From contig JAADJA010000171.1 in the NCBI GenBank assembly GCA_013151015.1, positions 5,749 to 69,748 on the forward strand: a stretch of 64,000 bases of DNA, given 5' to 3'. This document shows, one piece after another, positions 1,575 through 20,922 of the stretch. This DNA is from Chlorobiota bacterium (GTDB lineage Bacteria > Bacteroidota > Bacteroidia > Bacteroidales > JAADJA01). Each line of letters opens with the position of its first letter. Within the stretch, counting starts at the first letter, position 1. The notes under the pieces were generated by a model that made no database searches, was not told the origin of the DNA, and saw only the letters and a list, made by a program, of their open reading frames with translations. The translations under genes were made by a program, and so were the position numbers.

Positions 1575-2386
1575 ATGTCGAAACCCGGGGGTTCTTTGCC
1601 GATCCATAGGATAATCAAATTCCCGGGTTTTGAAAGGAAAAGAAAATCATTTCCATTTTTTATTAATAAACTATCTTGCATTCCGTTGAGAAGAAATCGT
1701 TGGGCCATTTTAACCCAATCCTTTGGAGGCAGTAAAAATCCACAACCTGTATAAATCACCGAATCAGCTTGAAAACCATTCAGGGAAATTGGGTTTTCAA
1801 TACCAGGAGCAAATCCGCTTAATTTATTTTGGTAATATTCGTTGATTTTTGTTCCGGTTGCCCTTTCTACAATCAGGCAACACAATTCCGTGATTACTTG
1901 AAATGTGTCATTTATGGGAGTTTTGATTTCCAAAAGGCCCTCAGGAATAGGTAAAGCTTTACTATCTGCCGAACCCAAATTCAAAAAACCCGCTAAGTTT
2001 ACCAAAGAAAATCCTTTTTCGGGAAGTTCAGGCAAATACTTGCGTACAGGCTCATTTGTCGAATAAACATATCCTTCGTTAAGGGCAGTTTCAAGTAAAC
2101 TAAGTGCTGTCAAACGGTCAATCAGGAGAGAAAAATGTTTTGTGGTTTCGCCGCTATCGGCAAAAAAGTGTTCTATTATCAAACTATCGGCCTGTATGAT
2201 AACGATGGCTTTTGTATTTCCCTCATTAACGTAAGCTTCAACGATTGAATCTGAAATGCCAATATCTTTATTTAGAAATCGAATTTGACCCTGATTTGCA
2301 TAGGCAGTACCAATCAGGATAAAACTGACAAATGCCATAATCACTAAGTTTTTGAAACAATTAAAACCTTTTTTGACTTTTGCCAT
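1538..2386 (-). CDS. Degenerate beta-lactamase-like serine hydrolase homologue, catalytic SxxK absent
   Basis: Signal peptide; family-like segments AIVIIQADSLIIEHFF and EGYVYSTNEPVRKYLPEL; FSLLIDR where SxSxAK is expected. Confidence 0.6.
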   Translation of the reverse strand: MAKVKKGFNCFKNLVIMAFVSFILIGTAYANQGQIRFLNKDIGISDSIVEAYVNEGNTKAIVIIQADSLIIEHFFADSGETTKHFSLLIDRLTALSLLETALNEGYVYSTNEPVRKYLPELPEKGFSLVNLAGFLNLGSADSKALPIPEGLLEIKTPINDTFQVITELCCLIVERATGTKINEYYQNKLSGFAPGIENPISLNGFQADSVIYTGCGFLLPPKDWVKMAQRFLLNGMQDSLLIKNGNDFLFLSKPGNLIILWIGKEPPGFDIYGFAKKLSEPG

Positions 2387-2456
2387 AATCCTATTTTGTT
2401 AATTCATTGTTGAAACAAAAGTAATTTAATTTGGACTTTTACTTCAATTAATAATC

Positions 2457-2464
2457 TACATTTG
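2457..2464 (+). promoter_or_regulatory. Bacteroidota sigma70 -7 element
   Basis: TACATTTG (TAnnTTTG) directly upstream of the riboswitch. Confidence 0.6.
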
Positions 2465-2471
2465 CAACGCA

Positions 2472-2656
2472 ATTATGGTGCACTTGCCTTGAAACCCAGG
2501 GCAAGTCTGAAAAGGGAATGCCGTGCTCCCGTCAATCTGGAAATTCGGCAACAGTACCCGCTGCTGTGATCGTCATTGACTTTTTGAAATTCTTAGCCAC
2601 TGTTCATTTGGATGGGAAGGCTTTCAAAAAAGGGCGTAAGTCAGAAGACCTGCCAG
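2472..2656 (+). promoter_or_regulatory. Cobalamin riboswitch
   Basis: Conserved blocks in the expected order: GGTG, AAAAGGGAA (2510), CCCGCTGCTGTGA, GCCACTG (2596), TGGGAAGG (2613), AAGTCAGAAGACCTGCC (2638); precedes btu-like genes. Confidence 0.95.
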
Positions 2657-2768
2657 GTTGTCGAATTATTTCAAGCTTTCGGGATAAAAGCTATGGGTAA
2701 ATGACCAAATCATCTATTCAAAGAATTTTCCTGTAAGTTTTTAGTGTTAAACCTTTAAACTTTACAAA

Positions 2769-4475
2769 ATGAAGAAAAATTACATCTTACGGGCAATGAC
2801 CTTATCCGTTGCAGTAGTGTTTGCATTAAACCTGAATGCACAGTTTTACACAAATCAATTAATAGTCGGGAACGGAGGGATTTATGGCGATCCTTCCGAC
2901 CATGTCACGGTTTCGGCCTATAATCCCGATGGGCAAACAACAACTTCCTTTGGCGATATCCAACGTGAATCCATACAGGATTTGATTATCCATGGGAATT
3001 ACGCATACGTTGCCGCCGAGGATTCCATCGTGAAATTCAATATTGACACATATGAGAAAGTCGCTGCCGTTTACGAAAGCAATCTGAACCAACTGTTTTG
3101 TAAAAACGGATTGTTGTACGTTAGCAGGCGTTCCGACATAAACGGCCCTCCGGCAGATGGGGTTTATCTGAAGGTGTTCAATGCCGGGGACTTGGCCCTC
3201 GTTGGTTCCGTAAATGGAATTTCAGGCGATGCCAATGGGATCGTGGTGGAATCGGATACGGTTTACTTGGCCGTTTCGGGAGACTGGCAGGCAACGGAAG
3301 GCAAATTTGCTGTGATCGACAACAGTTTCAACCTGGTTCGTGAAATGGATTTTGGTGCGGATGCAGTTGGGATATTTGATTTGTATTCCGATGGCAACAA
3401 TATTTATTCGGTGAACCGCAGCCCTTATGGGAGTATGAGTGGGTCGGTTTCCACTTATTCCATTTGGACAACTTTGTTCACCACAACCGTTTTTGACAAT
3501 GTAGTAGGAAAGGGGGTTGCAAAATCCAATAACGCATTGTACTTGATGCTGGACAATGGCATTGGTTCCTACGACCTTGGCACGAATGAAGTCCTCGAAA
3601 CATCCATTGTGCCCGATCCGGGTTCCTCCGATTTCATTTACATTGCAGATGCTGCTTTTGATTACCTGAACCAATTGTTTTATGTTACGCTTACCGATTA
3701 TTTTTCGATGGGAGAAGGAAAGATTTATGATATGGAGGGGACGGAAACCGGGACATTTGATGCAGAAGTTTCTGCCGAGGCAGTTGCACTTGATTTCAGG
3801 ATCAATGATTTTGCATGGGAAGATGTGGAATATTGGATTGGTGAAGGCGGAAACAAAGCCCTTTTCGTGGTTGACTGGAACGATGGCACCGAACCCGAAT
3901 CCATTGCCTGGGGTTTTCGTTTTGAAGGGGAAACCACAGGTGAAGAAATGCTTACGGCCATTGCTGAAGCTGATGACAGATTAACAATAAACATGGCAGG
4001 TGGGTTTTTGAACGATATTATTTATTCAAATGGATATGCCCATGAAGGTATCGGCGGGACAAACGGATTTTACTGGGCAACATATAGTGGCATAAATTCA
4101 GGGAATTGGTCAATGAACGCAGGCCTTTCAACATCTGTTTCCAATGGGGATTGGTTTGGGTGTTCGTTTACCGATTTTGACCCTGCGATTGTTCCCGGAG
4201 TTCCGGTTGCCGTTTCAAATCCTTTAGGTGTGCAAGTTTCGGAAGTTCCTGCCATCCATGTTTTCCCAAATCCGTTTAACGACAAAATCCAGATTGAAGC
4301 CCAAAACATTTCGGAAGTGAAAGTGTTAAACATGAATGGAAAACTACTTTATCAAAACAAATTAAACGGATGGGGCAGTTCCCGCATTGATTTGTCGGGA
4401 TTGCCAAAAGGGATGTATATTTTGCAGATGATTTCGGAAAAGGAAATGAAAGTGGAAAGGATTATTAAGCAATAA
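2769..4475 (+). CDS. T9SS cargo: BtuG/DUF5074-like beta-propeller + putative transcobalamin-like beta domain + T9SS type A CTD
   Basis: SPI signal peptide; propeller-like repeats in aa ~30-345; ~130-aa domain YWIGEG..WGFRF..YW..NGDWFGCSF; CTD VFPNP...LSGLPKGMYIL...KIIK-like end. Confidence 0.75.
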   Translation: MKKNYILRAMTLSVAVVFALNLNAQFYTNQLIVGNGGIYGDPSDHVTVSAYNPDGQTTTSFGDIQRESIQDLIIHGNYAYVAAEDSIVKFNIDTYEKVAAVYESNLNQLFCKNGLLYVSRRSDINGPPADGVYLKVFNAGDLALVGSVNGISGDANGIVVESDTVYLAVSGDWQATEGKFAVIDNSFNLVREMDFGADAVGIFDLYSDGNNIYSVNRSPYGSMSGSVSTYSIWTTLFTTTVFDNVVGKGVAKSNNALYLMLDNGIGSYDLGTNEVLETSIVPDPGSSDFIYIADAAFDYLNQLFYVTLTDYFSMGEGKIYDMEGTETGTFDAEVSAEAVALDFRINDFAWEDVEYWIGEGGNKALFVVDWNDGTEPESIAWGFRFEGETTGEEMLTAIAEADDRLTINMAGGFLNDIIYSNGYAHEGIGGTNGFYWATYSGINSGNWSMNAGLSTSVSNGDWFGCSFTDFDPAIVPGVPVAVSNPLGVQVSEVPAIHVFPNPFNDKIQIEAQNISEVKVLNMNGKLLYQNKLNGWGSSRIDLSGLPKGMYILQMISEKEMKVERIIKQ

Positions 4476-4597
4476 TAAATTAGTGCTGTTATCTTTGCAA
4501 CTTAGAACTGGAATCCTTCAAAGAGGTTTAATTTTGAAACGGTCCTTTATAATTAATTGTGTAATTTTGTATATGTTCATTTATAAAAAACTTCATT

Positions 4598-4840
4598 ATG
4601 TTAATTGATTATATCCAAGCAGCCTTAAATCATGCCAAGTATGAGATACTGGAAGAAGACAAAGCGTTTTATGGGGAAATTCCTGAATGCAATGGAGTTT
4701 ATGCACAATCGGATTCCTTAGAAGAATGCAGGGCAGAAATAGAAGAGGTTTTGGAAGAATGGGTGTTGTTCAGGATACATAAGAACCTTGATCTTCCGGT
4801 AATTGATGGTAAAGAAATTGTTATTAAAGAAACTGTCTGA
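4598..4840 (+). CDS. hicB: HicB-family antitoxin (short form)
   Basis: AKYEILE..FYGEIPECNGVYAQSDSLEECRAEIEEVLEEW; stop overlaps hicA start (TGATG). Confidence 0.9.
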   Translation: MLIDYIQAALNHAKYEILEEDKAFYGEIPECNGVYAQSDSLEECRAEIEEVLEEWVLFRIHKNLDLPVIDGKEIVIKETV

Positions 4841-5037
4841 TGCCACCATTTGGTCCAATAAACAGAAAGGATTTGGTGAGATATTTGAAGAGGGCCGGGT
4901 TTGATGGACCCTATTCGGGGGGCAAGCACCAATTTGTGGTCAAAGGGCAAATTACAATCAGAATCCCAAATCCGCATAAAGGGGACATCAGCAAATCCCT
5001 TCTTTCGAGAATTCTACGACAAGCAAAAATCAGTTAA
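4840..5037 (+). CDS. hicA: HicA-family mRNA interferase; probable premature stop (read-through to 5058 adds xQEWTKL)
   Basis: GGKHQF..KG..IRIPNPHKGDISKSLLSRILRQA. Confidence 0.85.
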   Translation: MPPFGPINRKDLVRYLKRAGFDGPYSGGKHQFVVKGQITIRIPNPHKGDISKSLLSRILRQAKIS

Positions 5038-5042
5038 CAAGA

Positions 5043-6014
5043 ATGGACAAAATTATAAAACCTATTTTCGTTTTTTCTCTAATTATTTCCTCGATTTCCG
5101 GTTATCCTCAATTCCCACCCGCAGCAGGGCAGGAGGGAAGTACGGCCATCAGCAAGGACAGCAGTGTATTTATTGCATATGCCGTGATGTGCGAGGTGGA
5201 AAGGGGCTACAAAGACATTTCCATGCCCGATTCCGGTTATGTGGATTTTGGGGAAGAAGGCAATGCGCTCGGACAGGCCGACAACAACATCATCAGTCTT
5301 GGTGATGGAGGCATTGCAACCCTGGGTTTCCATGTCCCGATATACAATGGCGAGGGTTTCGATTTTTGTGTTTTTGAAAACGCATTGAACGATACTTTCC
5401 TTGAACTGGCTTTTGTGGAAGTGAGCTCCGACGGAGAGAATTTCTTTCGCTTTCCGGCAACCTCGCTTACACAAACGGAAACACAAACAGGGACTTTTGG
5501 TGCAACGATACCTGAAAAGATCAATAACCTTGCAGGGAAATACAGGTTGTTCTTTGGAACGCCTTTCGATTTGGAAGAGATGAATAACATCCCTGGCTTG
5601 AACGTGGACAGCATCACACAAATAAGGATCATAGATGTGGTCGGTAGTATTGACGACAGCTTTGCAACTTTTGATTCCCAGGGAAATAAAATCAACGATC
5701 CCTGGCCCACCGCTTTTGCTACAGGTGGCTTCGACCTTGATGCCGTGGCCGTGATCCATAATTTGTTCAATCAGGATATTTCGGAAAACAGAGAACCGGA
5801 TTTTCGTGTTTTCCCAAATCCCGTCCTTGATCATTTGAATTTTGAAAGTAGCCGGGAATATCATATCGAACTTTTGACCCTGGAAGGAAAAATCGTTTTT
5901 AAAGCGCATTCAAAAAGACTTGTGATAGGGATGGGGGATTTCCCGAAAGGGATATACTTGTTGAAGGTTTCCAATGATAAAGGCTGTTCCATCAGGAAAA
6001 TCATAAAAAAATGA
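5043..6014 (+). CDS. BtuH-like putative cobalamin-binding domain with T9SS CTD
   Basis: SLGDGGIATLGF..IYNGEGFDFCVFEN and FVEVSSDG resemble the BtuH B12-binding domain; CTD VFPNPV...KGIYLL...KIIKK. Confidence 0.7.
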   Translation: MDKIIKPIFVFSLIISSISGYPQFPPAAGQEGSTAISKDSSVFIAYAVMCEVERGYKDISMPDSGYVDFGEEGNALGQADNNIISLGDGGIATLGFHVPIYNGEGFDFCVFENALNDTFLELAFVEVSSDGENFFRFPATSLTQTETQTGTFGATIPEKINNLAGKYRLFFGTPFDLEEMNNIPGLNVDSITQIRIIDVVGSIDDSFATFDSQGNKINDPWPTAFATGGFDLDAVAVIHNLFNQDISENREPDFRVFPNPVLDHLNFESSREYHIELLTLEGKIVFKAHSKRLVIGMGDFPKGIYLLKVSNDKGCSIRKIIKK

Positions 6015-7918
6015 GGACTCTTTCCCTGTTGTTTTTTGTCATGTTGGTCGGAAAAGCAGGTTTTCCACAGGAAGTGCTGAAGGATACGGTTTATGAACTG
6101 TCGCAGGTGCAGGTTTCTTCCGAACGAATCCACGATTTTTCCACCGGCCTGAAAATCCTTAAAATGGACAGCCTGACCCTTGACCTCAACCAGGACAAGG
6201 ACCTGGGTGAATTGCTTTCCCGTCAAAGTCCTTTGTACATCAAATCATATGGCCAGGGAGGCCTTGCCACCATTTCCTTTCGTGGAACATCTTCAGCCCA
6301 TACCGGAATTTACTGGAACGGCTTTTATTTGAACCTCCCCAACCTGGGTTCATCCGATTTATCATTGATTCCTTCCTCTTTGTTCAATTCGGTGGAAGTG
6401 CTTTATGGGGCTTCCGGGCCATTGTTCGGGAGCGGGAATATCGGAGGCAATATCCAACTGGACAACAAGCCCGTATTCATTAAAGGGATAGATGTCAACC
6501 TAAACCTTTCGGCTGGCAGTTTCAATACTTATGGGATTAATGGCTCCCTTCGATTGTCAAATACCAAGTGGTGGGGCTCAACGGCATTTACCTATAAAAA
6601 CGCAAAAAATGATTTCCCGTTCACAAACCTGAACGGCGGCAATGAAACAAGGGGGAATGCGGCTTTGTTGCAATACGGCCTGATGCAGGATGTTTACAGG
6701 AAGATCGGCGACAAACACCTGATCGGATTGTCGTTCTGGTACCAGTTTGCCGATAGGGAAATCCCGAAAACACTGGTGACGAAACCCTCAACGGCATCCC
6801 AGGACGATGAGTCTATCCGGGTTTCGGGCAGTTGGAAATATTTTCTTGCCAAAGGGACACTCAACCTGAAATCGGCATTTCTGAGGGACGATGAAAATTA
6901 TTCCGATCCTGAATCGGAAATCGAACAGAACAGGAATTCAAGAATACTGACAAAAACGTTTATCGCAGAAGCAAACTATAAGTTTAAAATCAATAGTCAA
7001 TTTGATTTCAATGCAGGGGCCAACTTTACAAATTCCGTTGGTGAAGCCACTGCATATTCAGGCAATCCACAAAGAGCGCAGTTAGGGATATTCGGGTCGG
7101 CACTATATAGATTCCCTAAAATAAATTGGAAAATCAACCTCAATCTCCGTCAGGATTTTATCGGGGGATTTGATGTCCCTTTCACCCCTTCGCTTGGGCT
7201 TGAGGGGAAAATCTGGCATTTTGTTTATGGGAAGGCCAACTTCTCCAAAAACTTCCGTGCCCCAACTTTCAACGACCTTTATTGGGAACCTTATGGGAAT
7301 AAAGACCTCCAGCCCGAAACCTCTTATAACGGGGAATTGGGCTTGTTGCTGATAAACAAAAACAAACAGGGAGCATTTTCGTCCCGGTTTTCGGGAACGG
7401 TTTACAGCTCCTTGATCGATAATTGGATATTGTGGATCCCCGTGAACAATAATTGGTCGCCCGAAAATATCCAGAAGGTTTGGAGCCGGGGTTTGGAACT
7501 GGAAGAGAAGCTTGATTTTAAGATTGGGAAATCAAGACTTAAAACTGCACTTGGCTATGCCCTGGTCAAATCGACCAATCAGGAAAAAACCGGTGAAAAC
7601 GATCAATCATTCGGGAAACAATTGATTTATGTCCCTGAACATTCCTTTTCGGGAAATGTTGATTACCTGTTCAGAAGTTTTGTATTCAGCTTCAATACCT
7701 CGTTTACGGGAAAACGGTTCGCAACCCGAGACAATGGCGAATATTTACCAGCGTTTGTAATTTCGGATTTGCAGATCGTAAAAAAGTTTTCGATAAAGAA
7801 AACCACGGTAAATATTGGTTTTGAAATAAACAACCTTTGGGGGTCGGAGTACCGGGCAATTCAATATTATCCAATGCCCGGAAGAAATTATAAACTATCG
7901 ATAAACTTTAAATTATGA
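6011..7918 (+). CDS. btuB: TonB-dependent cobalamin receptor
   Basis: Plug motifs YIKSYG..ISFRG..HTGIYWNG; NFRAPTFNDLYW; C-terminal PGRNY..F; riboswitch context. Confidence 0.9.
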   Translation: MRTLSLLFFVMLVGKAGFPQEVLKDTVYELSQVQVSSERIHDFSTGLKILKMDSLTLDLNQDKDLGELLSRQSPLYIKSYGQGGLATISFRGTSSAHTGIYWNGFYLNLPNLGSSDLSLIPSSLFNSVEVLYGASGPLFGSGNIGGNIQLDNKPVFIKGIDVNLNLSAGSFNTYGINGSLRLSNTKWWGSTAFTYKNAKNDFPFTNLNGGNETRGNAALLQYGLMQDVYRKIGDKHLIGLSFWYQFADREIPKTLVTKPSTASQDDESIRVSGSWKYFLAKGTLNLKSAFLRDDENYSDPESEIEQNRNSRILTKTFIAEANYKFKINSQFDFNAGANFTNSVGEATAYSGNPQRAQLGIFGSALYRFPKINWKINLNLRQDFIGGFDVPFTPSLGLEGKIWHFVYGKANFSKNFRAPTFNDLYWEPYGNKDLQPETSYNGELGLLLINKNKQGAFSSRFSGTVYSSLIDNWILWIPVNNNWSPENIQKVWSRGLELEEKLDFKIGKSRLKTALGYALVKSTNQEKTGENDQSFGKQLIYVPEHSFSGNVDYLFRSFVFSFNTSFTGKRFATRDNGEYLPAFVISDLQIVKKFSIKKTTVNIGFEINNLWGSEYRAIQYYPMPGRNYKLSINFKL

Positions 7919-8139
7919 TGGGGTTGATAATTTGGTAGGCTATGTGCTAACAGTTTAGATATGGTTAGTGAAATATTTGGTTTAAACAACAACAATACCA
8001 TCGCACCTATGGCGCTTGATGCAATTAAGTTGACCTGTTTTACCATGATGCCTCCAATACTGTGCTTAGTATCGGTTGGCAGTTGATTTTTGCAAAATGT
8101 AAATATAACAAGAGCCCAGGAATTAAAAGAATAGGAAAT

Positions 8140-9210
8140 ATGCAAAAAATAAAACCCTGGATTTTTAGAATTCTATTTATAGTCCCGTTCATGTTTGTAT
8201 CCTGCAATAAGGATGATAAAAAGGAAGACCCACCTCCATCGGGAAATTTTGACAATGGTGTTTTTATCATAAACGAAGGACTGTTCAATACAGGTACTGG
8301 GACGATTTCGTTCGTGAAACGCGGCAGTACCGATGTGCAGCAAAAGGTTTATCAGAAAGCAAACAATGAAATCCCCATTGGGAATATTGTGCAGTCGATG
8401 AACATAATTAATGGCAAGGCTTTCATTATGGTCAACAATGCAGATAAGGTAGAAGTTGCGAACTGGAATGATTTCAAAAAAATAAAAACCCTTGAAAACA
8501 TCCCTTATCCGGCTTATATTATCCAGGTCGATAATAATAAAGCCTATATTTCATGTTGGGACAACAAACTATTGATTGTTTCCCTTGAGAATCTTGAAAT
8601 CACTGGGGAAATAATTACCGGTACCGGCCCAACGAAAATGTTGAAAACCGGGGAAAGCATATGGGTATTGAACCAGGGAGGTCTTGGCCTCGACAGTACC
8701 ATTTCCATAATAGATAATTCAACCGATCAACTTGTGCACACCATCCCGGTTTTCCCCCGTCCGACAGGGATACAAAAAGACAAAAACGGCAATATCTGGG
8801 TGATGTGTTCCGGTCGGGGATCATGGCAGGGGGGCGATTCCAAGGGCCACTTGCTTTGCATCGACCCGGAGGATTATTCGATTATCAAGGATCTTAAATT
8901 TCCCGTTTCAACCAAACATCCCGAAAAATTGATAATTAATTCCGAAGGTGATATCTTGTTTTACAACTATCCCGATGGCATTTACAAATTTGATGTGTCC
9001 TCAGGCAATTTGGAAACTGAAGCCTTTATTGCCCATACAGGTTTTTTTTACGGATTGGCCTATGATGAAACCGACAATGTGATATACAGCTCCGATCCAT
9101 TGGATTATGTGCAAAATGGTTTGGTTTATCGCTTTGATGCCATTTCGGGTGAATTGATAAATTCGTTCAATGCAGGTGTGATACCCAGAGAATTTTATTT
9201 TTCTGATTAA
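8140..9210 (+). CDS. btuG: BtuG-like (YncE/DUF5074) surface lipoprotein
   Basis: Lipobox FVSC; FIINEG.F; GNIVQSM; FYGLA..DY.QNG.VYRF; AGVIP; ATG at 8140 preferred. Confidence 0.85.
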   Translation: MQKIKPWIFRILFIVPFMFVSCNKDDKKEDPPPSGNFDNGVFIINEGLFNTGTGTISFVKRGSTDVQQKVYQKANNEIPIGNIVQSMNIINGKAFIMVNNADKVEVANWNDFKKIKTLENIPYPAYIIQVDNNKAYISCWDNKLLIVSLENLEITGEIITGTGPTKMLKTGESIWVLNQGGLGLDSTISIIDNSTDQLVHTIPVFPRPTGIQKDKNGNIWVMCSGRGSWQGGDSKGHLLCIDPEDYSIIKDLKFPVSTKHPEKLIINSEGDILFYNYPDGIYKFDVSSGNLETEAFIAHTGFFYGLAYDETDNVIYSSDPLDYVQNGLVYRFDAISGELINSFNAGVIPREFYFSD

Positions 9211-9381
9211 AACACGTATTTTTGCCCTCCCTTAAAAAGAGCTGTTTTTGGACAGCTCCATAGGAGCGCCATTATGGTAGAATATTAGAATAAGTTCAGA
9301 GAGGTTTTGGCGGTATTTTTGCCTTTGCAAAAATAGTGACGAAACCAGTTTAATTAAGAATTTAATGAAAAACAAAAAGAT

Positions 9382-9798
9382 ATGAAAAACAAAGTAGAAG
9401 TACGTTGGACAGAAGACATGGCCTTTGAGGCCGAAGTGAACAACCACAAAATCATTATTGATGCCGGTGAGAAAGTCGGTGGACAGGATCGCGGGCCACG
9501 GCCCAAAGCACTTACCTTGGTTTCCCTTGGCGGTTGCACCGGAATGGACGTTATTTCCATCCTGAAAAAGATGCGGGTCGAGCCCGATTATTTCAATGTG
9601 GAAGTGGAAGGGGAGCTCACTGAAGAGCACCCAAAATATTACCACACTATCACCATTACCTACACGTTCAGGGGAAAAGACCTTCCCATGGCCAAACTTG
9701 AAAAAGCCGTTAAGCTTTCACAGGACAGGTATTGCGGCGTAACCGCCATGCTCGACAAAGCCGCAAAAATAGAGCATAAGATCGTGGTGGAAGGGTAA
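9382..9798 (+). CDS. OsmC-family protein
   Basis: GPRPK..LGGCTGMDV..ILKKMR; SQDRYCGV. Confidence 0.92.
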   Translation: MKNKVEVRWTEDMAFEAEVNNHKIIIDAGEKVGGQDRGPRPKALTLVSLGGCTGMDVISILKKMRVEPDYFNVEVEGELTEEHPKYYHTITITYTFRGKDLPMAKLEKAVKLSQDRYCGVTAMLDKAAKIEHKIVVEG

Positions 9799-9804
9799 GC
9801 ATGC

Positions 9805-9891
9805 AAAAAGCGTCCACGCTTTTTCTATAATGAATATGATACAGCTACCCATACTTTAATTTGTTCGCAAAATAAGCGTGGACACTTATTT
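9805..9891. repeat. Inverted doublet of short REP-like palindromes between convergent genes
   Basis: AAAAAGCGTCCACGCTTTTT (9805-9824) and AAATAAGCGTGGACACTTATTT (9870-9891). Confidence 0.6.
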
Positions 9892-9931
9892 CATTGCCCT
9901 TGCTCCCTGTTAGTGTTGTTACTAACAAGCT

Positions 9932-11359
9932 TTATTCTTTCCCGATCACAAACTTATCATAAAGCCTCAAACTTACCGAAGCGATTATCCCGATGGAGAT
10001 AATGACGATCCAAATGGAAGAGGGATGGTAAGTGGTCCAAAGGTAATCGGTCAGTTCCCGTTGCCCCATGTTCATCATTTCGGCTGCTTTGGCAAAGATT
10101 TCATTGTGCGACAGGTTTCCATCCACGGACAAGCCCCTTTTCCCAAGCTCCTTCAGAAGCAGGTTGTGTTTGTCCGACATGGCCTGATATACATCCCCTG
10201 AAATAATCCCTGCAAAAATACTCCCGAGGAAAACCGGGATATAGGAATAGCCCATGTACAATGCTTTCTTGTTCTTTGGGGCAATATGGCCAATGTATTC
10301 CGTTATTTTTGGGGAACCCGCCATTTCACCAATGGCAAAAATGAAAAGGGCGGCAATTATGAACATCACATTTTGTGTCATCAACGTGAGCGCCATCCCG
10401 ATTGAACTTACAAGAAAACCGGTGAACATGGCACTCAAGGGTTTCCATTTCATCACGACGGACGAGACCAGTATCTGGAAGATTATGATGAACATTGCAT
10501 CGAAATTGGTAATGAACTCCGCTTCCATTTGTCCGTCCCTGCTATAATTTTCTGCAATGAACGGCATATATTCACTGAAATACCTGTACATCGACGAAGT
10601 GTCCACCCATTGCTCGATAAAAACGGGAAGGGTGTAAAACAACTGGTTGTACATAGTCCAGAAACCGGCAACGATTATCAGGAAAAGCACGAATTTGAAA
10701 TCTTTCAGGACTAGGCCGATATTTCCGAAAACATATTGCATCGACTTGGAAAAAGAATCTGTGGATTTCTGCCTGTCAGGTTCTTTGTAGAAAAACAACA
10801 GGATAAAATTCAAGGCGATAACGGCTGCCGATATATGGAACACAATATCATAAGATGATCCTTTATAGAGCAAGGTGAGCATGGGGCCAATAAACGCACC
10901 AAGGTTCACCATCATATAATAAACCCCGAACCCAATGGACGAATTTTCCTTGTTTGTGGTTTTGGCAACTGTGGCCGAAATTACCGGTTTGAAAAGTGCT
11001 GCACCGAGGGCAAGGTAAAGGTACATGGCAAACACGCCCGTAAAGGTGTCGAACATCGGCAGTAAAATAAAGGCCGAAACATAGATGGAAAAAGCGATGA
11101 TCAAAACTTTTTTATAGCCGTACTTATCGGCAATGGAACCCGTGATTACCGGGAGGAAATATAAAATCCCCGTGCCCACGCCCATGATCCAGCCTTTTTG
11201 CGACTGTGAGAACTCAAGCCCTCCCACATCCGAGGAGCTGGTTAAGTAATTGGCAAAAAGCATGAAGAAGCCATACCATGCCCAGCGCTCGAAGAGTTCA
11301 AAGGTATTGGCGACCCAAAAGGTACGAGGGAACGACCTGAATGTTTTTAGCATCGACAT
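9932..11359 (-). CDS. MFS transporter, POT/PTR-like
   Basis: ELFERWAWYG motif; GFGVYYMMVNLG; many TM helices; upstream TTG of the ORF track lies in a TATCTTTG promoter element. Confidence 0.88.
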   Translation of the reverse strand: MSMLKTFRSFPRTFWVANTFELFERWAWYGFFMLFANYLTSSSDVGGLEFSQSQKGWIMGVGTGILYFLPVITGSIADKYGYKKVLIIAFSIYVSAFILLPMFDTFTGVFAMYLYLALGAALFKPVISATVAKTTNKENSSIGFGVYYMMVNLGAFIGPMLTLLYKGSSYDIVFHISAAVIALNFILLFFYKEPDRQKSTDSFSKSMQYVFGNIGLVLKDFKFVLFLIIVAGFWTMYNQLFYTLPVFIEQWVDTSSMYRYFSEYMPFIAENYSRDGQMEAEFITNFDAMFIIIFQILVSSVVMKWKPLSAMFTGFLVSSIGMALTLMTQNVMFIIAALFIFAIGEMAGSPKITEYIGHIAPKNKKALYMGYSYIPVFLGSIFAGIISGDVYQAMSDKHNLLLKELGKRGLSVDGNLSHNEIFAKAAEMMNMGQRELTDYLWTTYHPSSIWIVIISIGIIASVSLRLYDKFVIGKE

Positions 11360-11557: not shown

Positions 11558-13852
11558 ATGCGTACAAAATTATTTTTAGCCCCCGTGTTCATTTTGCTGT
11601 TCGGGCTCGTTGCACAATCCCAAAACAACAATAACCAACTTTTTAAGGAAAGGGGAGAGGTGTTTTTCAAGTTCAACATGGAAACGCCCAAGGATATTCA
11701 TTTTCTGACCAACACAATTTCAATTGACGATGTGCAAGGAACATTGGTTTTTGCTTATGCCAATGAGAAAGGTTTTTCGGAATTCCTGGGAATGGGCATT
11801 GATTACACTATCCTGCCCCATCCCGGTGATATTGAAAACCCTAACATGAAAAGCAGTATTGACCTGAAAAACATTGACAGTTGGGATTTTTATCCAACAT
11901 ACGAAGCCTATGTGGATATGATGTACCAGTTCCAAACCGATTATCCCGGGCTTTGCCAGGTTTACAGCATTGGGCAATCGGTACAAAACCGCGAATTGCT
12001 CATGGCACGTATCTCCGATAATGTGGGCACGGACGAAGGCGAGGCGCAATTCCTTTATACCTCCACCATGCACGGTGACGAGACAACCGGTTTTCCGCTT
12101 ATGCTCAGGTTTATCGACTACCTTCTCTCGAATTACGGTTCGGACGACCGGGTCACTGGGCTTGTGAACAACCTTGACATTTATATCAACCCGAACGCAA
12201 ACCCTGATGGCACCTACCATGGAGGGAACAATACCGTAAACGGTGCACAGCGTTACAATGCAAACAATGTGGACCTGAACCGCAATTACCCTGACCCCCA
12301 GGATGGCCCGCATCCCGATGGGGAAGCATGGCAACCCGAAACCCTCGCTTTCATGGCCTTTGCCGAAAGCCATCATATTGTATTGGCTTGCAATATGCAC
12401 GGTGGCGCCGAGGTGTGCAATTATCCCTGGGACACATGGGCGCAATATCCTGCCGATACGGATTGGTGGCAATATGTGATGCACGAATATGCGGACACGG
12501 CACAACTGTTTTCACCCAATGGGTATATGTCAGGCTTTGATGATGGGATAACGAATGGGTATGCCTGGTACGAAGTTAACGGTGGCCGGCAGGATTACAT
12601 GAACTATTTTCAACAATGCCGTGAATTTACCATTGAACTTTCCGATCAAAAACTATTGCCCCCAAGTCAGTTGCCTGCCCATTGGGATTACAACTACCGT
12701 TCGTTTTTGAATTATTTGGAACAAGTCCAATATGGTGTAAGCGGAACGATAACCGATGCGGATACAGGGGATCCCCTGGTTGGTGAAGTTTATATCGAAA
12801 GCCATGAAGCCGACAGTTCCTGGGTTTATTCGGGTGTGCTTGGCGATTATCACCGTCCGCTTTACCAAGGTACTTACGACATTACCTATTCGGCAATTGG
12901 ATATATCCCACAAACGATAAACGTAACAGTTGCAAACAAGGAGACAAGCATTGTTGATGTGCAATTGGAATCCGGTGATTTGATCGCGGATTTTACAGCA
13001 AGCACCACCAATGTTTCCATTGGTGGAAGTGTGAACTTCACCGATCTTAGTTTTGGGAGTCCTGTAAGTTGGGAATGGACATTTGAAGAGGGGACACCCT
13101 CAACCTCCAATGAGCAAAACCCAACAGGGATCGTATATAGCAATGTCGGTTCTTTCGATGTAAGCCTTACGGTATCCGATGGGACCAATTCGCAAACCAT
13201 CACCAAAAACGATTATATCCATGCCACGATCGATATCGTTATGGAGAATACAACCATCACGACCTGTCTCGGTACATTTTACGATACGGGTGGATCGGCA
13301 AATAATTATGGCGATGACGAGGACATTACGATGATATTTTTACCGGGCACGGAAGGCGCCATGATTGAATGTGTATTTACGATGTTCAACGTGGAAGATG
13401 AATCCAGTTGTAATTACGACTGGTTGAAGATTTATGATGGCAATTCCACATCCGCAACCTTGATCGGGAAATATTGCGGGACAGATTCGCCGGGCACGAT
13501 AACAGCCACGAATCAGGAAGGTGCCATTACCTTTCAATTTCATTCCGATGGCTCGGTAACCAAACCGGGCTGGGCGGCAAACATCAGTTGTGCAGGGATT
13601 ACATTTGTGAACGAAGATGTGATGACGCAAATTAAGGTTTTTCCAAACCCGGCGAAAGACGTGATTTCCATTTCATCCCCTTTGAAAATCCAATCTATTG
13701 TGATCCTTGATATGATTGGGAAACAAATATTGGTAAAAGAGGTAAACCAAGAATCCATTAATTTGAATATTTCCGGTTTGGATTCAGGTTTGTACTTTGT
13801 CAACTTAAAAACCGAAGAAGGAATTGTCACAAAGAAAATAAGGGTTTTGTAA
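11558..13852 (+). CDS. M14 zinc carboxypeptidase with PKD, CUB and T9SS CTD domains
   Basis: HGDE, DLNRNYP, HGG motifs; PKD (VNFTDLS..WEWTF); CUB (CNYDWLKIYDG..FHSDGS); VFPNP CTD. Confidence 0.92.
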   Translation: MRTKLFLAPVFILLFGLVAQSQNNNNQLFKERGEVFFKFNMETPKDIHFLTNTISIDDVQGTLVFAYANEKGFSEFLGMGIDYTILPHPGDIENPNMKSSIDLKNIDSWDFYPTYEAYVDMMYQFQTDYPGLCQVYSIGQSVQNRELLMARISDNVGTDEGEAQFLYTSTMHGDETTGFPLMLRFIDYLLSNYGSDDRVTGLVNNLDIYINPNANPDGTYHGGNNTVNGAQRYNANNVDLNRNYPDPQDGPHPDGEAWQPETLAFMAFAESHHIVLACNMHGGAEVCNYPWDTWAQYPADTDWWQYVMHEYADTAQLFSPNGYMSGFDDGITNGYAWYEVNGGRQDYMNYFQQCREFTIELSDQKLLPPSQLPAHWDYNYRSFLNYLEQVQYGVSGTITDADTGDPLVGEVYIESHEADSSWVYSGVLGDYHRPLYQGTYDITYSAIGYIPQTINVTVANKETSIVDVQLESGDLIADFTASTTNVSIGGSVNFTDLSFGSPVSWEWTFEEGTPSTSNEQNPTGIVYSNVGSFDVSLTVSDGTNSQTITKNDYIHATIDIVMENTTITTCLGTFYDTGGSANNYGDDEDITMIFLPGTEGAMIECVFTMFNVEDESSCNYDWLKIYDGNSTSATLIGKYCGTDSPGTITATNQEGAITFQFHSDGSVTKPGWAANISCAGITFVNEDVMTQIKVFPNPAKDVISISSPLKIQSIVILDMIGKQILVKEVNQESINLNISGLDSGLYFVNLKTEEGIVTKKIRVL

Positions 13853-13992: not shown

Positions 13993-14007
13993 GATTTAAA
14001 AAGAAAA

Positions 14008-14528
14008 ACCAACAGCTCCGTAAGCGGGATCCTGTTCTATCCTGTCATTTATCTAGGAGCAGTGTCACCACTGCCCTCTAGCAGCCAACCCCCCGGGATC
14101 GGACGAGCAGCCCTTATATCCACATTGCGGATATCCCCGGTATATTTGGCCTTTCAACCCGTAAGGTTTACCCCATTGCCATGTCACCATAACAATGCGT
14201 GGGCTCTTACCCCACGTTTTCACCTTTACCCGCCGGAGCTTCAGCGTAGGCGGGTTTACCCACCCAATACTACTGGATTGGGTTTACCCACCTAATTCAT
14301 CAGGATTGGTTTACCCACCTTTTAAAATTTGGGTAAAGCCAAATATGAAAAGGCCAGTGGACCCTTCCCGTAAAACCAAAACCCCGGCAGGAAGTCATTC
14401 TCTGTGGCACTTGCTGTATGCCAACGCACCTAAGTATCGTTGGCACCCTTCCTGTTAGGAAGTACGGCGCTCTGTGTTGTCCCGACTTTCCTCCCCGTAT
14501 AAACGGGACGACAGGTCGAACTGCTGGT
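14008..14528 (-). ncRNA. rnpB: RNase P RNA (type A) with enlarged P12
   Basis: Minus strand: GAGGAAAGTCGGG, AGTGCCACAGA, GGTGAAA..GGTAAGAGCCCAC, GCTGCTCG, AGATAAATGAC, ACAGGATCCCGCTTA; P1 ACCAGCAGTTC/GAGCTGTTGGT. Confidence 0.95.
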
Positions 14529-17466: not shown

Positions 17467-18900
17467 ATGAAAATGCTTCTACTCTTAATATTGATTCCAT
17501 TTATTGCATATTCTCAAAATAGTTTTGAATATATAGGTGATGATACATTGAGTACCTACTGTATATCAAGCTTTGTAGATAATCAAAACTATTACATTTC
17601 AGTTGGTTCAAAAAGGGATCCCAACAGTACGAATCACGGTGCGTATATTTTACGATTTCAAAACATTGAAGACGTTGTTGAAAAAACCTTTATCAAAGAA
17701 GGTGTTCATTTCGGCCTTGCTTTTGGAACACAAAAAGAAAATAATCACTATTTTTTTATTGGGCATATATTTTCTCCAATACCCCAATTATATTTAATGG
17801 AACTGGACGAAGAATTAAACCTTGTTCAAGAGTTTTATTATGATGTACCCAATATATACAATAGTTTATTGATCCAGGATGCTTTTTTCGATGCAAATGG
17901 TATTGTAATTCTCAGGGGAAATTTGGACGACCCGGCACCTGGTGACGAGAATGATATTTATCTCGCTAAGATAAATACTAATGGTGAGCTATTGGATACA
18001 ACAATTATCACTGACCTGAATAATGATTCAGGGGCAGAGATTTTAAAAAGGCAGGATGGTAGTGGTTATTATATACTGGGAACAGGGATACATAAAAAGA
18101 TCGTTTTGGACAACGATCTTAATGTAATTGAATATCAGGATTTTCCAGCAGGAAGTGTATTTAGCTCACCATTGGCTTTGCGCTGGCTCCCTGATGGAAA
18201 TATTATGGTCGCCAATATGGCTAACCAAAGTGTGCCCGGGGCATATTATGACATCCGCTTAAGGATAGTAGATGAAAGTTTTAACACAATAAAAGATACT
18301 ACTTTCTTTGATGAAGGGAAAAACAGACTTGCCTATTATAGTAGCCTGGACTATGTTGACCCCGATAATATATGGGTGGTTACTTACATAAATGGCTGGA
18401 AATCGTCAATAGATGAATGGGAGAGTGCAAGGGTGTATATTGTTGATTCGGAAATGAACCTGAAAGGGGCAAAATACTTTGCAGGTGATTTGGATGTATA
18501 TTTATATTCCACTAAGGCACTGGAAGATGGTGGGTGCATTATTACCGGATTGGTTCCAAAAGATGGAAAGAATTATGATTGGAATGTTTATGTCCGTAAA
18601 TTAATGCTTGACGATATATTTACAAACGCCGAAGAAACCCCTGCTCCTGACGACAGCGATGTATTGCTGTTTCCCAATCCAGTGAAAGATGTTTTGCATA
18701 TTGAGACTTATCGTAAGAATTTAAGTGTCAGCCTGTATGACGAAAGCGGGAAATGTGTTACCGAGCGCAGGGAACTTCATATTCCCAAAACTCAATTTAA
18801 TATCTCTCATTTGCCGGGTGGGATATATTTTTATTTGGTCTTTGACAAAGAAAAGGTCATCAAGACGGGAAAAATCATTAAACAAAATATTAATCAATAA
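17467..18900 (+). CDS. T9SS CTD protein of unknown function (beta-propeller-like)
   Basis: Signal peptide; DIYLAKINTNGE and DGGCIITG repeats; LFPNPV...GGIYFY...GKIIK; visibly AT-rich. Confidence 0.8.
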   Translation: MKMLLLLILIPFIAYSQNSFEYIGDDTLSTYCISSFVDNQNYYISVGSKRDPNSTNHGAYILRFQNIEDVVEKTFIKEGVHFGLAFGTQKENNHYFFIGHIFSPIPQLYLMELDEELNLVQEFYYDVPNIYNSLLIQDAFFDANGIVILRGNLDDPAPGDENDIYLAKINTNGELLDTTIITDLNNDSGAEILKRQDGSGYYILGTGIHKKIVLDNDLNVIEYQDFPAGSVFSSPLALRWLPDGNIMVANMANQSVPGAYYDIRLRIVDESFNTIKDTTFFDEGKNRLAYYSSLDYVDPDNIWVVTYINGWKSSIDEWESARVYIVDSEMNLKGAKYFAGDLDVYLYSTKALEDGGCIITGLVPKDGKNYDWNVYVRKLMLDDIFTNAEETPAPDDSDVLLFPNPVKDVLHIETYRKNLSVSLYDESGKCVTERRELHIPKTQFNISHLPGGIYFYLVFDKEKVIKTGKIIKQNINQ

Positions 18901-18911
18901 AAATTAAAAAA

Positions 18912-19959
18912 ATGAAACATATAATAATAGCAATAGCAATATTTATGGTATTTACAGCAAATGCACAGGTTGATTATTATAACACTACTACCAACGGCAC
19001 TAATGCAAGCGCCATAGGCTTGAACAATGAAGCGGACGGGGACAATGCCTTTGTGGGAGGGGGAAATTCAAAAGCACAAGGCCAAAACTCATTTGCTTTT
19101 GGTCTTTCAGCAGAAACCCATGCCACAAATGCTTTTGCATTGGGACTATCAACAAAAAGTAACGGAGTAGCTTCGTTCACAATTGGAAAATATATAACCG
19201 CAAACGGAACAGATTCTTATGTAATCGGAAAAGGGATAACTTCAAGCTATCGTTTGGTAAACGATATTCCCAATTCACTGATGATAGGGATGAATTCCAC
19301 CCAAGCCCACGTTTTTCGTAAGCCAGTCCTATGGGTTGGAAGGCACCGGCAAAATAGGTATAGGAAACGTCACCAACCCCTTGGCCAAACTCCACATCAA
19401 AGCGGACGATAACGAGGATGCAAGTTTATTGTTAGAAGCTGACAATAGCGATTATGTTGCGTCTTTAAGCTTCAACAACACCAACACCCGGATTGAAGCC
19501 CAAAGTGGGGAAAGCATGCATTTTTATTCTGAAAACAACTATGTTTTTGCCGAAGGCGATATTTTTTTGGAAGATATCAATAGCGGTATTGTAATGAAGT
19601 CCCCTGACGGTCAATGTTGGCGGGGGCAGGTGGACAACTCGGGCAGCCTTCAATTTTCACCTGTCGATTGTAGCACCATCACAGCAATGGCCCCCATTTC
19701 TGAACCCTTGCGCTCAACCATAAAGATTTTCCCCAATCCTGCATCCAATATTTTGCATTTCCATTCGGACACAAGCCTAAAAGACATTGCTATCGAAATA
19801 TTCAACCTTAAAGGACAGGCTATTTTGACACACACTTGGTCAGGAAGGGAAACAGATATCAATCTTGGCAATTTTCTGTCCGGTAATTACGTAATCAAAA
19901 TCTTCGATGCAAACCATAAACTTGTTGAACAACAAAAAATCATTATTGTCCAAAGATAA
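18912..19959 (+). pseudogene. YadA-head-repeat T9SS protein split by a +1 frameshift at 19300-19302
   Basis: Removing one C gives ...NSTKPTFFVSQSYGLEGTGKIGIG..., a 348-aa ORF with signal peptide, 14-aa (S/N)AFAxG repeats and IFPNP CTD. Confidence 0.8.
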
Positions 19960-20707: not shown

Positions 20708-20922
20708 CACCATGAGTTTCCATGGACTGAAGGCCATGGGTTCGTGTTGTCAAAAACCTTGCTTCCAGTAAGTGTTGTCCCCAACTAAAAATAAACCCAC
20801 ACATCCTGCAAAATAATTTCCCCTTCCCCCGTTATTATTTTATACTTTTATTTTTTCTTTGCTTCTGGCTGGTGTTGTCTCCAATCAGAAATAAATTTCA
20901 CCTTTCCCAAAAACAAAATCGT

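Follow-up and report, generated by a model that had tools for sequence, protein, structure and literature searches.

In Bacteroides thetaiotaomicron the accessory proteins of vitamin B12 (cobalamin) scavenging, BtuG, BtuH, BtuJ and BtuK, are surface lipoproteins (PMC6143338, PMC8941943, PMC10404256, PMC12751083, PMC13616437). Here we analyze a stretch of 64,000 nucleotides from a Chlorobiota bacterium (NCBI GenBank assembly GCA_013151015.1, contig JAADJA010000171.1, positions 5,749 to 69,748 of the forward strand), which we call the window and whose coordinates are used throughout. It contains a B12-related locus on the + strand in which two proteins, ORF1 and ORF2, resemble such accessory binders and end in the C-terminal sorting domain (CTD) of the type IX secretion system (T9SS). 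From the sequence we consider it quite probable that this is a riboswitch-controlled corrinoid uptake operon, in which a BtuB–BtuG importer is served by two T9SS-exported accessory binders that feed it. The evidence that carries this reading comprises the riboswitch, the CTDs, the T9SS genes of the organism, a conserved gene neighborhood and the resemblance, by homology or by fold, between the modules and proteins proven to bind B12.

The closest described systems are the Btu loci of B. thetaiotaomicron. Efficient transport requires BtuH2 (PMC8941943), BtuJ1 is described as an extracellular reservoir (10.1101/2025.07.01.662609), and vesicles carrying BtuJ have been proposed to extend capture beyond the cell (PMC12751083). 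The linker beside the lipidated cysteine of BtuG contacts loops of BtuB, and Trp194, Trp272, Tyr316, Tyr239 and Tyr335 are named as corrin-contacting residues of BtuG2 (PMC10404256). The locus in the window shares with these loci a riboswitch in front, a BtuB like BtuB2 and BtuB3, a lipoprotein BtuG, and extra BtuG- or BtuH-type modules within the operon. It differs in that the accessory modules have a putative Sec leader and a type A CTD where those of B. thetaiotaomicron have a lipobox, in the presence of a DUF4430-like module, and in that no btuFCD was found in this genome. The arrangement of ORF1, a BtuG propeller with a second, here putative, corrinoid-type module in one chain, recalls BtuG1 (BtuGH, BT1490, 8BLW chain B). 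However BtuG1 is a lipoprotein that caps BtuB1, whereas the second module of ORF1 is DUF4430-like rather than BtuH-like and is followed by a CTD, the BtuH-like module being carried on a separate protein. Compared with BtuH2, ORF2 lacks the N-terminal Ig-like/PKD domains and the lipoprotein anchor. The HmuY–HmuR hemophore uptake of Porphyromonas offers an analogy of mechanism, since there too an extracellular tetrapyrrole binder serves a TonB-dependent receptor, but the ligand and the protein families differ and we claim no homology.

There is one precedent for T9SS routing of a B12 binder. We take IPR026444 to be the entry for the T9SS sorting domain. It is found on 229 of the 824 proteins of the DUF4465/IPR027828 (BtuJ) family, with IPR013424 on 88 (PMC12751083, section 8), and the family is proposed there to be mainly extracellular; one B12-binding family is therefore already known as T9SS-routed. 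CTD-bearing members of this family (PF14717) adjoin homologs of ORF2 in other genomes, as described below, but the window itself has no DUF4465 protein, its modules being BtuG-like, DUF4430-like and BtuH-like. What is new is the proposed T9SS routing of a Btu accessory-binder system with BtuG-like, BtuH-like and transcobalamin-like modules, the DUF4465 link being already in print. The terms 'T9SS' and 'type IX' are absent from the main text of PMC8941943, PMC10404256, PMC13398666 and the 2026 review PMC13616437, and the text of that review, on B. thetaiotaomicron, does not contain DUF4430. A full-text literature search returned no paper on T9SS-sorted proteins of the BtuG, BtuH or DUF4430 types, although supplements may hold more.

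The features of the locus are collected in Table 1. The initial annotation had placed a B12-riboswitch locus here with a start at 2472, which falls inside the aptamer, and the riboswitch is real. It is the sole RF00174 match in the whole 4.32-Mb genome, which is 94.76% complete. All seven PDB sequence matches of the TonB-dependent receptor at E ≤ 1e-5 are BtuB proteins, led by BtuB2/BtuB3 of B. thetaiotaomicron (8bmx_C at 1.3e-59, 8p97_A at 4.9e-58) and including 8blw_A (2.4e-21). The receptor scores below the cut-offs of the two BtuB equivalogs, TIGR01779 (2.3e-29, 102.4 bits against 599.7) and NF007926 (70.9 bits against 836), which are models of proteobacterial BtuB. The product of the gene that follows matches DUF5074 (PF16819) with 115.3 bits against a cut-off of 27.2, and nine more BtuG-type chains beside 8p97_B at E ≤ 5.8e-36; judged by domain, PDB matches and the lipobox read from its translation, it is the BtuG lipoprotein. 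Its longest reading frame opens at a GTG at 8062, the ATG at 8140 being the likely true start. The stop of ORF2 and the start of btuB overlap as ATGA.

Table 1. Features of the corrinoid uptake locus, in window coordinates (aa, amino acids).
Feature	Position	Strand	Basis
Cobalamin riboswitch aptamer	2459..2671	+	Rfam RF00174, 94.5 bits (gathering score 31.5), E 3.1e-22, model 1-189 of 189
ORF1, 568 aa: leader, BtuG-like propeller, DUF4430-like domain, T9SS CTD	2769..4475	+	ORF list, AlphaFold2 model
ORF1 residues 25-345: seven-bladed propeller, BtuG homolog	2841..3803	+	Foldseek, exhaustive structural search, hhalign
ORF1 residues 346-490: DUF4430-like (transcobalamin C-terminal-like) module	3804..4238	+	Matches of homologous units to PF14478
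ORF1 residues 498-568: type A T9SS CTD	4260..4472	+	PF18962 1.7e-14; TIGR04183 1e-13
hicB-like antitoxin gene, 80 aa	4598..4840	+	PF21748 UPF0150 2.4e-28, 98.2 bits (cut-off 27.3); HicB_lk_antitox 0.0039
hicA toxin gene, 65 aa	4840..5037	+	PF07927 HicA_toxin 1.2e-10, 41.8 bits (cut-off 27)
ORF2, 323 aa: leader, BtuH-like beta-sandwich, T9SS CTD	5043..6014	+	ORF list, AlphaFold2 model
ORF2 residues 22-245: BtuH-like domain	5106..5777	+	Exhaustive structural search, top match 7biz_B
ORF2 residues 256-323: type A T9SS CTD	5808..6011	+	PF18962 1.3e-9; TIGR04183 1.5e-9; PDB 8glk_D (T9SS substrate CTD) 1.3e-4
btuB, TonB-dependent corrinoid receptor	6011..7918	+	Plug and barrel domains; PDB matches all BtuB
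btuG, surface lipoprotein propeller	8140..9210	+	DUF5074 4.3e-33; 8p97_B 4.1e-41; lipobox FVSC
OsmC-like gene, recurrent downstream neighbor	9382..9798	+	PF02566 1.3e-18

At the N-terminus ORF1 and ORF2 each have a cysteine-free hydrophobic leader, ending in AQ or PQ as read from the translations, and both close with a CTD at the extreme C-terminus. That of ORF1 scores 54.3 bits against PF18962 and 51.1 against TIGR04183; that of ORF2 scores 38.7 and 37.7 (cut-offs 27 and 23, respectively). It had been set beforehand that a failure of these CTDs to match TIGR04183 would count against the proposal, and with both above the cut-off that objection falls away. The same annotation had read from the letters two signal-bearing proteins without a lipobox and with T9SS CTDs, followed by btuB and a lipoprotein btuG, with no btuFCD in the window, and this is borne out, the leaders being putative signals; it had missed a third module in ORF1 (residues 346-490) and the hicBA pair between ORF1 and ORF2. 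The genome also encodes the secretion machinery, with SprA (2573 bits), PorU (1285 bits) and PorV (504 bits) each above its cut-off, and has 147 CTD matches. Searches for SprA and PorU found no match in a control genome of B. thetaiotaomicron. To our knowledge Bacteroides has no T9SS, which this result fits. A crude lipobox pattern, which is not a proper signal prediction, flagged 25 of 75 ORF2-type proteins as lipoproteins; in the ten of these that were inspected the cysteine lay in the mature conserved motif or in the hydrophobic core before the AQ site, and we do not count the flagged proteins as lipoproteins.

The AlphaFold2 model of ORF1, built from 52 homologs, has a predicted local distance difference test score (pLDDT) of 88.6 and shows a propeller, a second domain and the CTD. 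In a Foldseek search of the PDB with the propeller every listed row at ranks 1-16 belongs to the BtuG family (BT1954, BT2095, BACUNI_02894, BtuG1-3), with a template modeling (TM) score by target of 0.74-0.80 for the single-domain BtuG chains and at most 0.62 for the next propellers. An exhaustive structural search independent of Foldseek (VIA), over 48,161 representative chains, placed BtuG1, BT1954 and another BtuG at ranks 1-3 with Z of 31.0-31.3, the match to BtuG1 (8blw_B, residues 46-376) having Z = 31.3; BtuK1 (9s6c) came at rank 28 with Z = 24.3. Sequence comparison of ORF1 with the BtuG of the window by BLASTP gave no similarity (E 0.95), and phmmer searches of the PDB with ORF1 and ORF2 gave matches through the CTD only. 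Alignment of profiles by hhalign, using 19 propeller domains and 26 BtuG lipoproteins, gave 98.9% with E 2.4e-17 over 295 columns, and a separate run of the propeller family against BtuG gave 99.3% with E 1.4e-20. An earlier hhalign value of 7% came from a sub-alignment whose propeller columns included unrelated N-terminal sequence from some proteins, and is superseded by the clean alignments. Since Foldseek, VIA and hhalign agree, the ORF1 propeller is best described as a divergent BtuG paralog, and on the profile alignments it is homologous to BtuG over its full length.

With a whole propeller homologous to BtuG, and a propeller-CTD gene kept in the btuB operon in 18 of the 80 best related loci described below, ORF1 might be imagined as a second, T9SS-delivered lid of BtuB that replaces the lipoprotein. 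We think this very improbable. The operon already encodes a canonical lipoprotein BtuG, and ORF1 has no leader cysteine or lipid anchor, and a CTD instead; it lacks the lipidated cysteine beside the linker by which BtuG contacts BtuB (PMC10404256). In addition the first CTD protein of the corresponding operon of a genome of the same genus (G070) has no propeller. A complex prediction from the alignments of BtuB and of the ORF1 propeller made no call (score 0.00, against a mark of 0.32).

Between its propeller and its CTD ORF1 has a further domain. Of 18 aligned homologous units, 12 match DUF4430 (PF14478), the best at 4.9e-8, and the hidden Markov model of the family recognizes, at 1e-10 to 1e-17, units that are repeated within the CTD proteins of related loci. 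Structural neighbors in the ESM Atlas (TM score by query 0.78-0.86) are domains of DUF4430 + CTD proteins and of DUF5074 proteins; the feature search of the Atlas reached 0.75, below the level of a lead. DUF4430 is found in the C-terminal region of vertebrate transcobalamins (PMC4350170). Compared with that domain of transcobalamin and intrinsic factor, for which the Pfam model has 72 positions, the unit of the window family has about 145 residues and an N-terminal extension. We therefore describe residues 346-490 as a DUF4430-like, transcobalamin-like module, as predicted from its homologous units.

ORF2 has one domain before its CTD, and this is single-copy in the genome. Its AlphaFold2 model is of middling quality, with pLDDT = 77.0. 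Among the 48,161 chains VIA ranked first the C-terminal part of 7biz_B (Z 13.3, root mean square deviation 3.4, 159 aligned residues, 18% identity), which is the B12-binding lipoprotein BtuH2 (BT1956) of B. thetaiotaomicron; the code occurs once in PMC8941943, the BtuH2 paper. The second rank is taken by residues 393-660 of 8blw_B, the BtuH-like C-terminal half of BtuG1, with Z = 11.5. The best unrelated rows outside CTD matches are a PAPP-A chain and CBM32-type modules, at Z of at most 10.6. In the model, then, residues 22-245 share the fold of the B12-binding domain of BtuH2. We call the likeness structural only, since by sequence neither DUF4465 nor 7BIZ is convincingly matched by any of the family. 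Foldseek against the PDB, which had been suggested together with structure prediction as a check, recovered BtuG for ORF1 but for ORF2 gave only beta-glucuronidase-type jelly-rolls with TM score by query of at most 0.23; we judged the latter result uninformative and used VIA in its place. In the ESM Atlas (TM score by query 0.86-0.98) the ORF2 domain occurs with a T9SS CTD, and in clusters that also carry DUF4430 or DUF4465. In one Atlas cluster with a BtuH-like domain, for which the commonest recorded phylum is Planctomycetota, 37% of the members carry PEP-CTERM. A DUF4465 + CTD profile run against the window genome gave, among the matches listed, mainly matches in the CTD region, and no full DUF4465 domain.

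A survey of riboswitch and CTD co-occurrence had been proposed at the outset. A scan for the ORF2 family with one genome per species returned at least 599 pattern matches, 546 of which were confirmed, and we studied the best 80 loci of the ORF2 family. By record title they belong to Bacteroidales, Flavobacteriales, Chitinophagales, Sphingobacteriaceae, Saprospiraceae and further groups. Riboswitches were called by Rfam in 20 short loci, with eight positives, and a sequence profile built from these and that of the window was then run over all 80; Rfam on eight loci left empty by the profile found no riboswitch. On the same strand a riboswitch lies upstream within 6 kb in 54 of the 80 loci, and in 48 of the 63 that have at least 4 kb of upstream sequence. 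The CTD is kept in 74, btuB is nearby in 43 and btuG in 44, and at least one of riboswitch, btuB and btuG is present in 65. The proposed association is therefore found well beyond the window, and the theme recurs in three distant members of the phylum. In G070, the genome of the same genus, a riboswitch is followed by a DUF4430-like-CTD protein (240 aa), a BtuH-like-CTD protein, btuB, btuG and a 137-aa ORF, in overlapping genes. A BtuF-type gene lies downstream in 14 related loci.

The gene just upstream of the ORF2 homolog varies. It encodes a propeller-CTD protein in the 18 loci mentioned above, one of which (L064) has the build of ORF1 itself with propeller, middle domain and CTD. In 19 of the 80 it encodes a CTD protein of about 330 aa, and the six of these scanned by Pfam are all DUF4465 + CTD; in 11 it encodes one to three DUF4430-like units with a CTD. 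Locus L038 has at 8715-10007 a DUF5074-positive BtuG of 430 aa that itself carries a CTD, before the ORF2 homolog. The modules are also fused to each other, as in L071 (4315-6096, 593 aa), where DUF4465 is joined to a BtuH-like domain, and in L061 (1531-3708, 725 aa), with a DUF4430-like unit, a BtuH-like domain and a CTD; L075 (143-) is also listed as module-shuffled. The two forms of propeller are distinguished by their leaders: a lipobox-like cysteine is present in 40 of 40 full-length BtuG ORFs of the related loci, against 1 of 18 propeller-CTD proteins.

These loci bear on whether the CTD proteins feed the importer at all. They could bind corrinoids with no relay, acting as a surface store, withholding corrinoids from competitors or stripping other carriers, while BtuB–BtuG import proceeds independently. 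The extracellular reservoir described for BtuJ1 would be such a case, and in eight of the 80 loci the ORF2 homolog stands alone directly behind the riboswitch, neither btuB nor btuG being detected within 6 kb. We regard this as unlikely, since ORF2 is translationally coupled to btuB by the ATGA overlap, most of the related loci are one tight operon with btuB and btuG, and BtuH2 is needed for efficient transport in B. thetaiotaomicron.

Several observations weigh against reading ORF1 and ORF2 as accessory corrinoid binders of a BtuB–BtuG operon. The ORF1 propeller has no DUF5074 match (Pfam at E ≤ 0.1 for the whole protein and E ≤ 10 for the isolated domain), a sequence profile of the propeller family run against the PDB finds no BtuG, and in VIA generic YVTN seven-bladed propellers (Z at most 29.4) trail BtuG by only about 2 Z units. 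Residues 346-490 of ORF1 itself have no Pfam match at E ≤ 10, or at E ≤ 1 for PF14478, and the profile of the middle-domain family gives nothing in the PDB below E 0.4, neither transcobalamin nor a solved B12 binder. For ORF2 the CBM32-type sugar-binding modules follow the BtuH matches at Z of about 10. DUF4465 matches none of 50 members of the ORF2 family, nor ORF1 or ORF2. A profile of those 50 members against the PDB reaches 7biz_A at E 0.05 with 15.5 bits, over 37 residues only. The BtuH-like module of the initial annotation holds by fold, its sequence link being weak; the BtuG-like module holds by both. The small Z leads over generic propellers and CBM32 modules mean that folds alone do not prove the ligand.

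It might then be argued that the CTD proteins are adhesins or glycan binders, namely a generic propeller and a sandwich of CBM32 type, tied to the B12 genes by no more than shared regulation or neighborhood. Neither protein matches a Pfam B12-binder family, and the glycosidase jelly-rolls from Foldseek, the CBM32 scores and the abundance of CTD proteins in the genome would all suit this. So would 15 of the 80 best loci, in which no riboswitch, btuB or btuG lies near the ORF2 homolog, eight of them being riboswitch-free by Rfam. Yet the link to riboswitch, btuB or btuG in the other 65 loci is far above what neighborhood alone would give, both of the solved BtuH-type structures outrank every sugar-binding module, the homology of the propeller to BtuG extends over 295 columns, and other proteins carry these modules in fusion with DUF4465 and DUF4430. 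Together these make a role as adhesins or glycan binders improbable.

Two further points count against accessory binding in a single operon. The ORF2 family is sparse, though its range is wide: of 301 genomes sampled from the phylum 12 have it, that of the window among them. Within the window, moreover, adjacent genes with UPF0150 and HicA_toxin domains, whose stop and start overlap as ATGA at 4837-4840, form a HicAB pair placed between the two CTD genes, with gaps of 122 nt after ORF1 and 5 nt before ORF2. The pair is missing from G070, where the genes overlap directly. The hicBA insertion breaks this overlap and may introduce its own promoter, in which case control of ORF2-btuB-btuG by the riboswitch could be partly lost; the insertion may uncouple these genes from it. 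A scan of 2300-9900 for promoters and terminators gave counts at the level of shuffled sequence (18 against 16.6 and 9 against 8.9), with a scan that does not cover Bacteroidota promoters.

On the reading that we consider quite probable, in which the two proteins are accessory binders that feed BtuB–BtuG, a course of events can be proposed. When B12 is scarce the riboswitch would permit expression of the operon, and the putative Sec leaders would take ORF1 and ORF2 across the inner membrane. Their CTDs would be recognized by the SprA/PorV machinery and cleaved by PorU, leaving the proteins attached to the surface or released. Outside, the two proteins, with three putative corrinoid modules between them, would capture corrinoids and deliver them to BtuG/BtuB, and import would then be driven by TonB. 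We infer corrinoid binding by these modules, repression by B12, export, hand-off to BtuG and final location from the sequence features described above.

The location admits a sharper form of the same proposal, with which it is not in contradiction. Both proteins could be released as soluble, hemophore-like corrinoid carriers that return to BtuG/BtuB. We hold this as a tentative suggestion. In Flavobacterium the type A cargo is in many cases soluble in the medium, and ORF1 and ORF2 have type A CTDs and no membrane anchor of their own; the BtuJ vesicles proposed for B. thetaiotaomicron would extend capture in a comparable manner. In Porphyromonas, however, PorU attaches type A cargo to anionic lipopolysaccharide and so keeps it on the cell, and PorU is present in this genome. 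A freely diffusing binder would also be costly in open water, by record title the source of many of the related genomes, and the sequence does not tell release from anchoring.

Taking the locus and its relatives together, a wider picture may be sketched, which we offer with considerable reserve. Scattered T9SS-bearing Bacteroidota would deliver a modular kit of catchers (BtuG-like, BtuH-like, BtuJ/DUF4465 and DUF4430) on one sorting tag, some of them released as soluble 'cobalophores' that return B12 to BtuG–BtuB. B12 acquisition would then be T9SS-dependent, and the lipoprotein system of Bacteroides would be the version of a T9SS-less lineage.

The wider genome gives some indication of the need for B12. 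It has five ORFs with a B12-binding domain, including frames of 1225 aa and 721 aa. No match to CbiC or CobS was found in the 94.76%-complete genome, nor to FecCD (btuC) or Peripla_BP_2 (btuF), the window included in the latter search. The organism appears to be auxotrophic for B12 and to have no riboswitch-controlled locus other than the one described here. Another of the five frames (515 aa; contig C167, 1364-1693, +, L004) has a single in-frame TGA, which may reflect a frameshift, two genes or a recoded stop. On contig C37 of the same genome (5960-16168, -, L099) a 412-aa T9SS CTD protein with no named domain overlaps a 741-aa TonB-dependent receptor, which is followed by an HmuY-like lipoprotein, making a second row of tetrapyrrole-uptake type in the genome. 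This row lies about 1.3 kb downstream of a 720-aa ORF with a B12-binding domain, with a 641-aa ORF beyond, and a CTD protein again stands ahead of a receptor-lipoprotein pair.

An OsmC-type gene follows btuG in the window, and genes of one cluster (137-138 aa) lie downstream of the operon in L064 (13967-14380), L028 (8630-9040), L027 and L030; Pfam confirmed OsmC in L064 and L028, the two that were scanned. The 137-aa ORF of G070 (L095) occupies the equivalent place. We know of no link between OsmC and B12 uptake, and regard the gene as a possible member of the B12 unit. Elsewhere in the window there are three further T9SS CTD proteins on the + strand (11558-13852, 17467-18900 and 19336-19959), one being an M14 carboxypeptidase that also has PKD and CUB domains, while the N-terminal part of the other two is unnamed. 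A bacterial alpha-2-macroglobulin of 1879 aa is encoded at 20872-26511 (+). At 14005-14527 (-) lies a class A bacterial RNase P RNA (222.7 bits); compared with the Rfam consensus, one of its helices has a large insertion of about 150 nt.

Most Bacteroidota have to scavenge B12, a micronutrient that is limiting and shared, and the process is at present modeled on the surface lipoproteins of one genus that lacks the T9SS. The locus and its relatives suggest another route in T9SS-bearing Bacteroidota of soil, water, rumen and sediment, using binders that carry a T9SS tag. If this is true, mutants in the T9SS should have defects in B12 acquisition, and the cargo of the T9SS would gain a nutrient-capture class beside its enzymes and adhesins. 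It would also provide a testable function for many proteins annotated as 'T9SS type A sorting domain-containing protein', and a bacterial relative of the transcobalamin domain that is open to binding studies.

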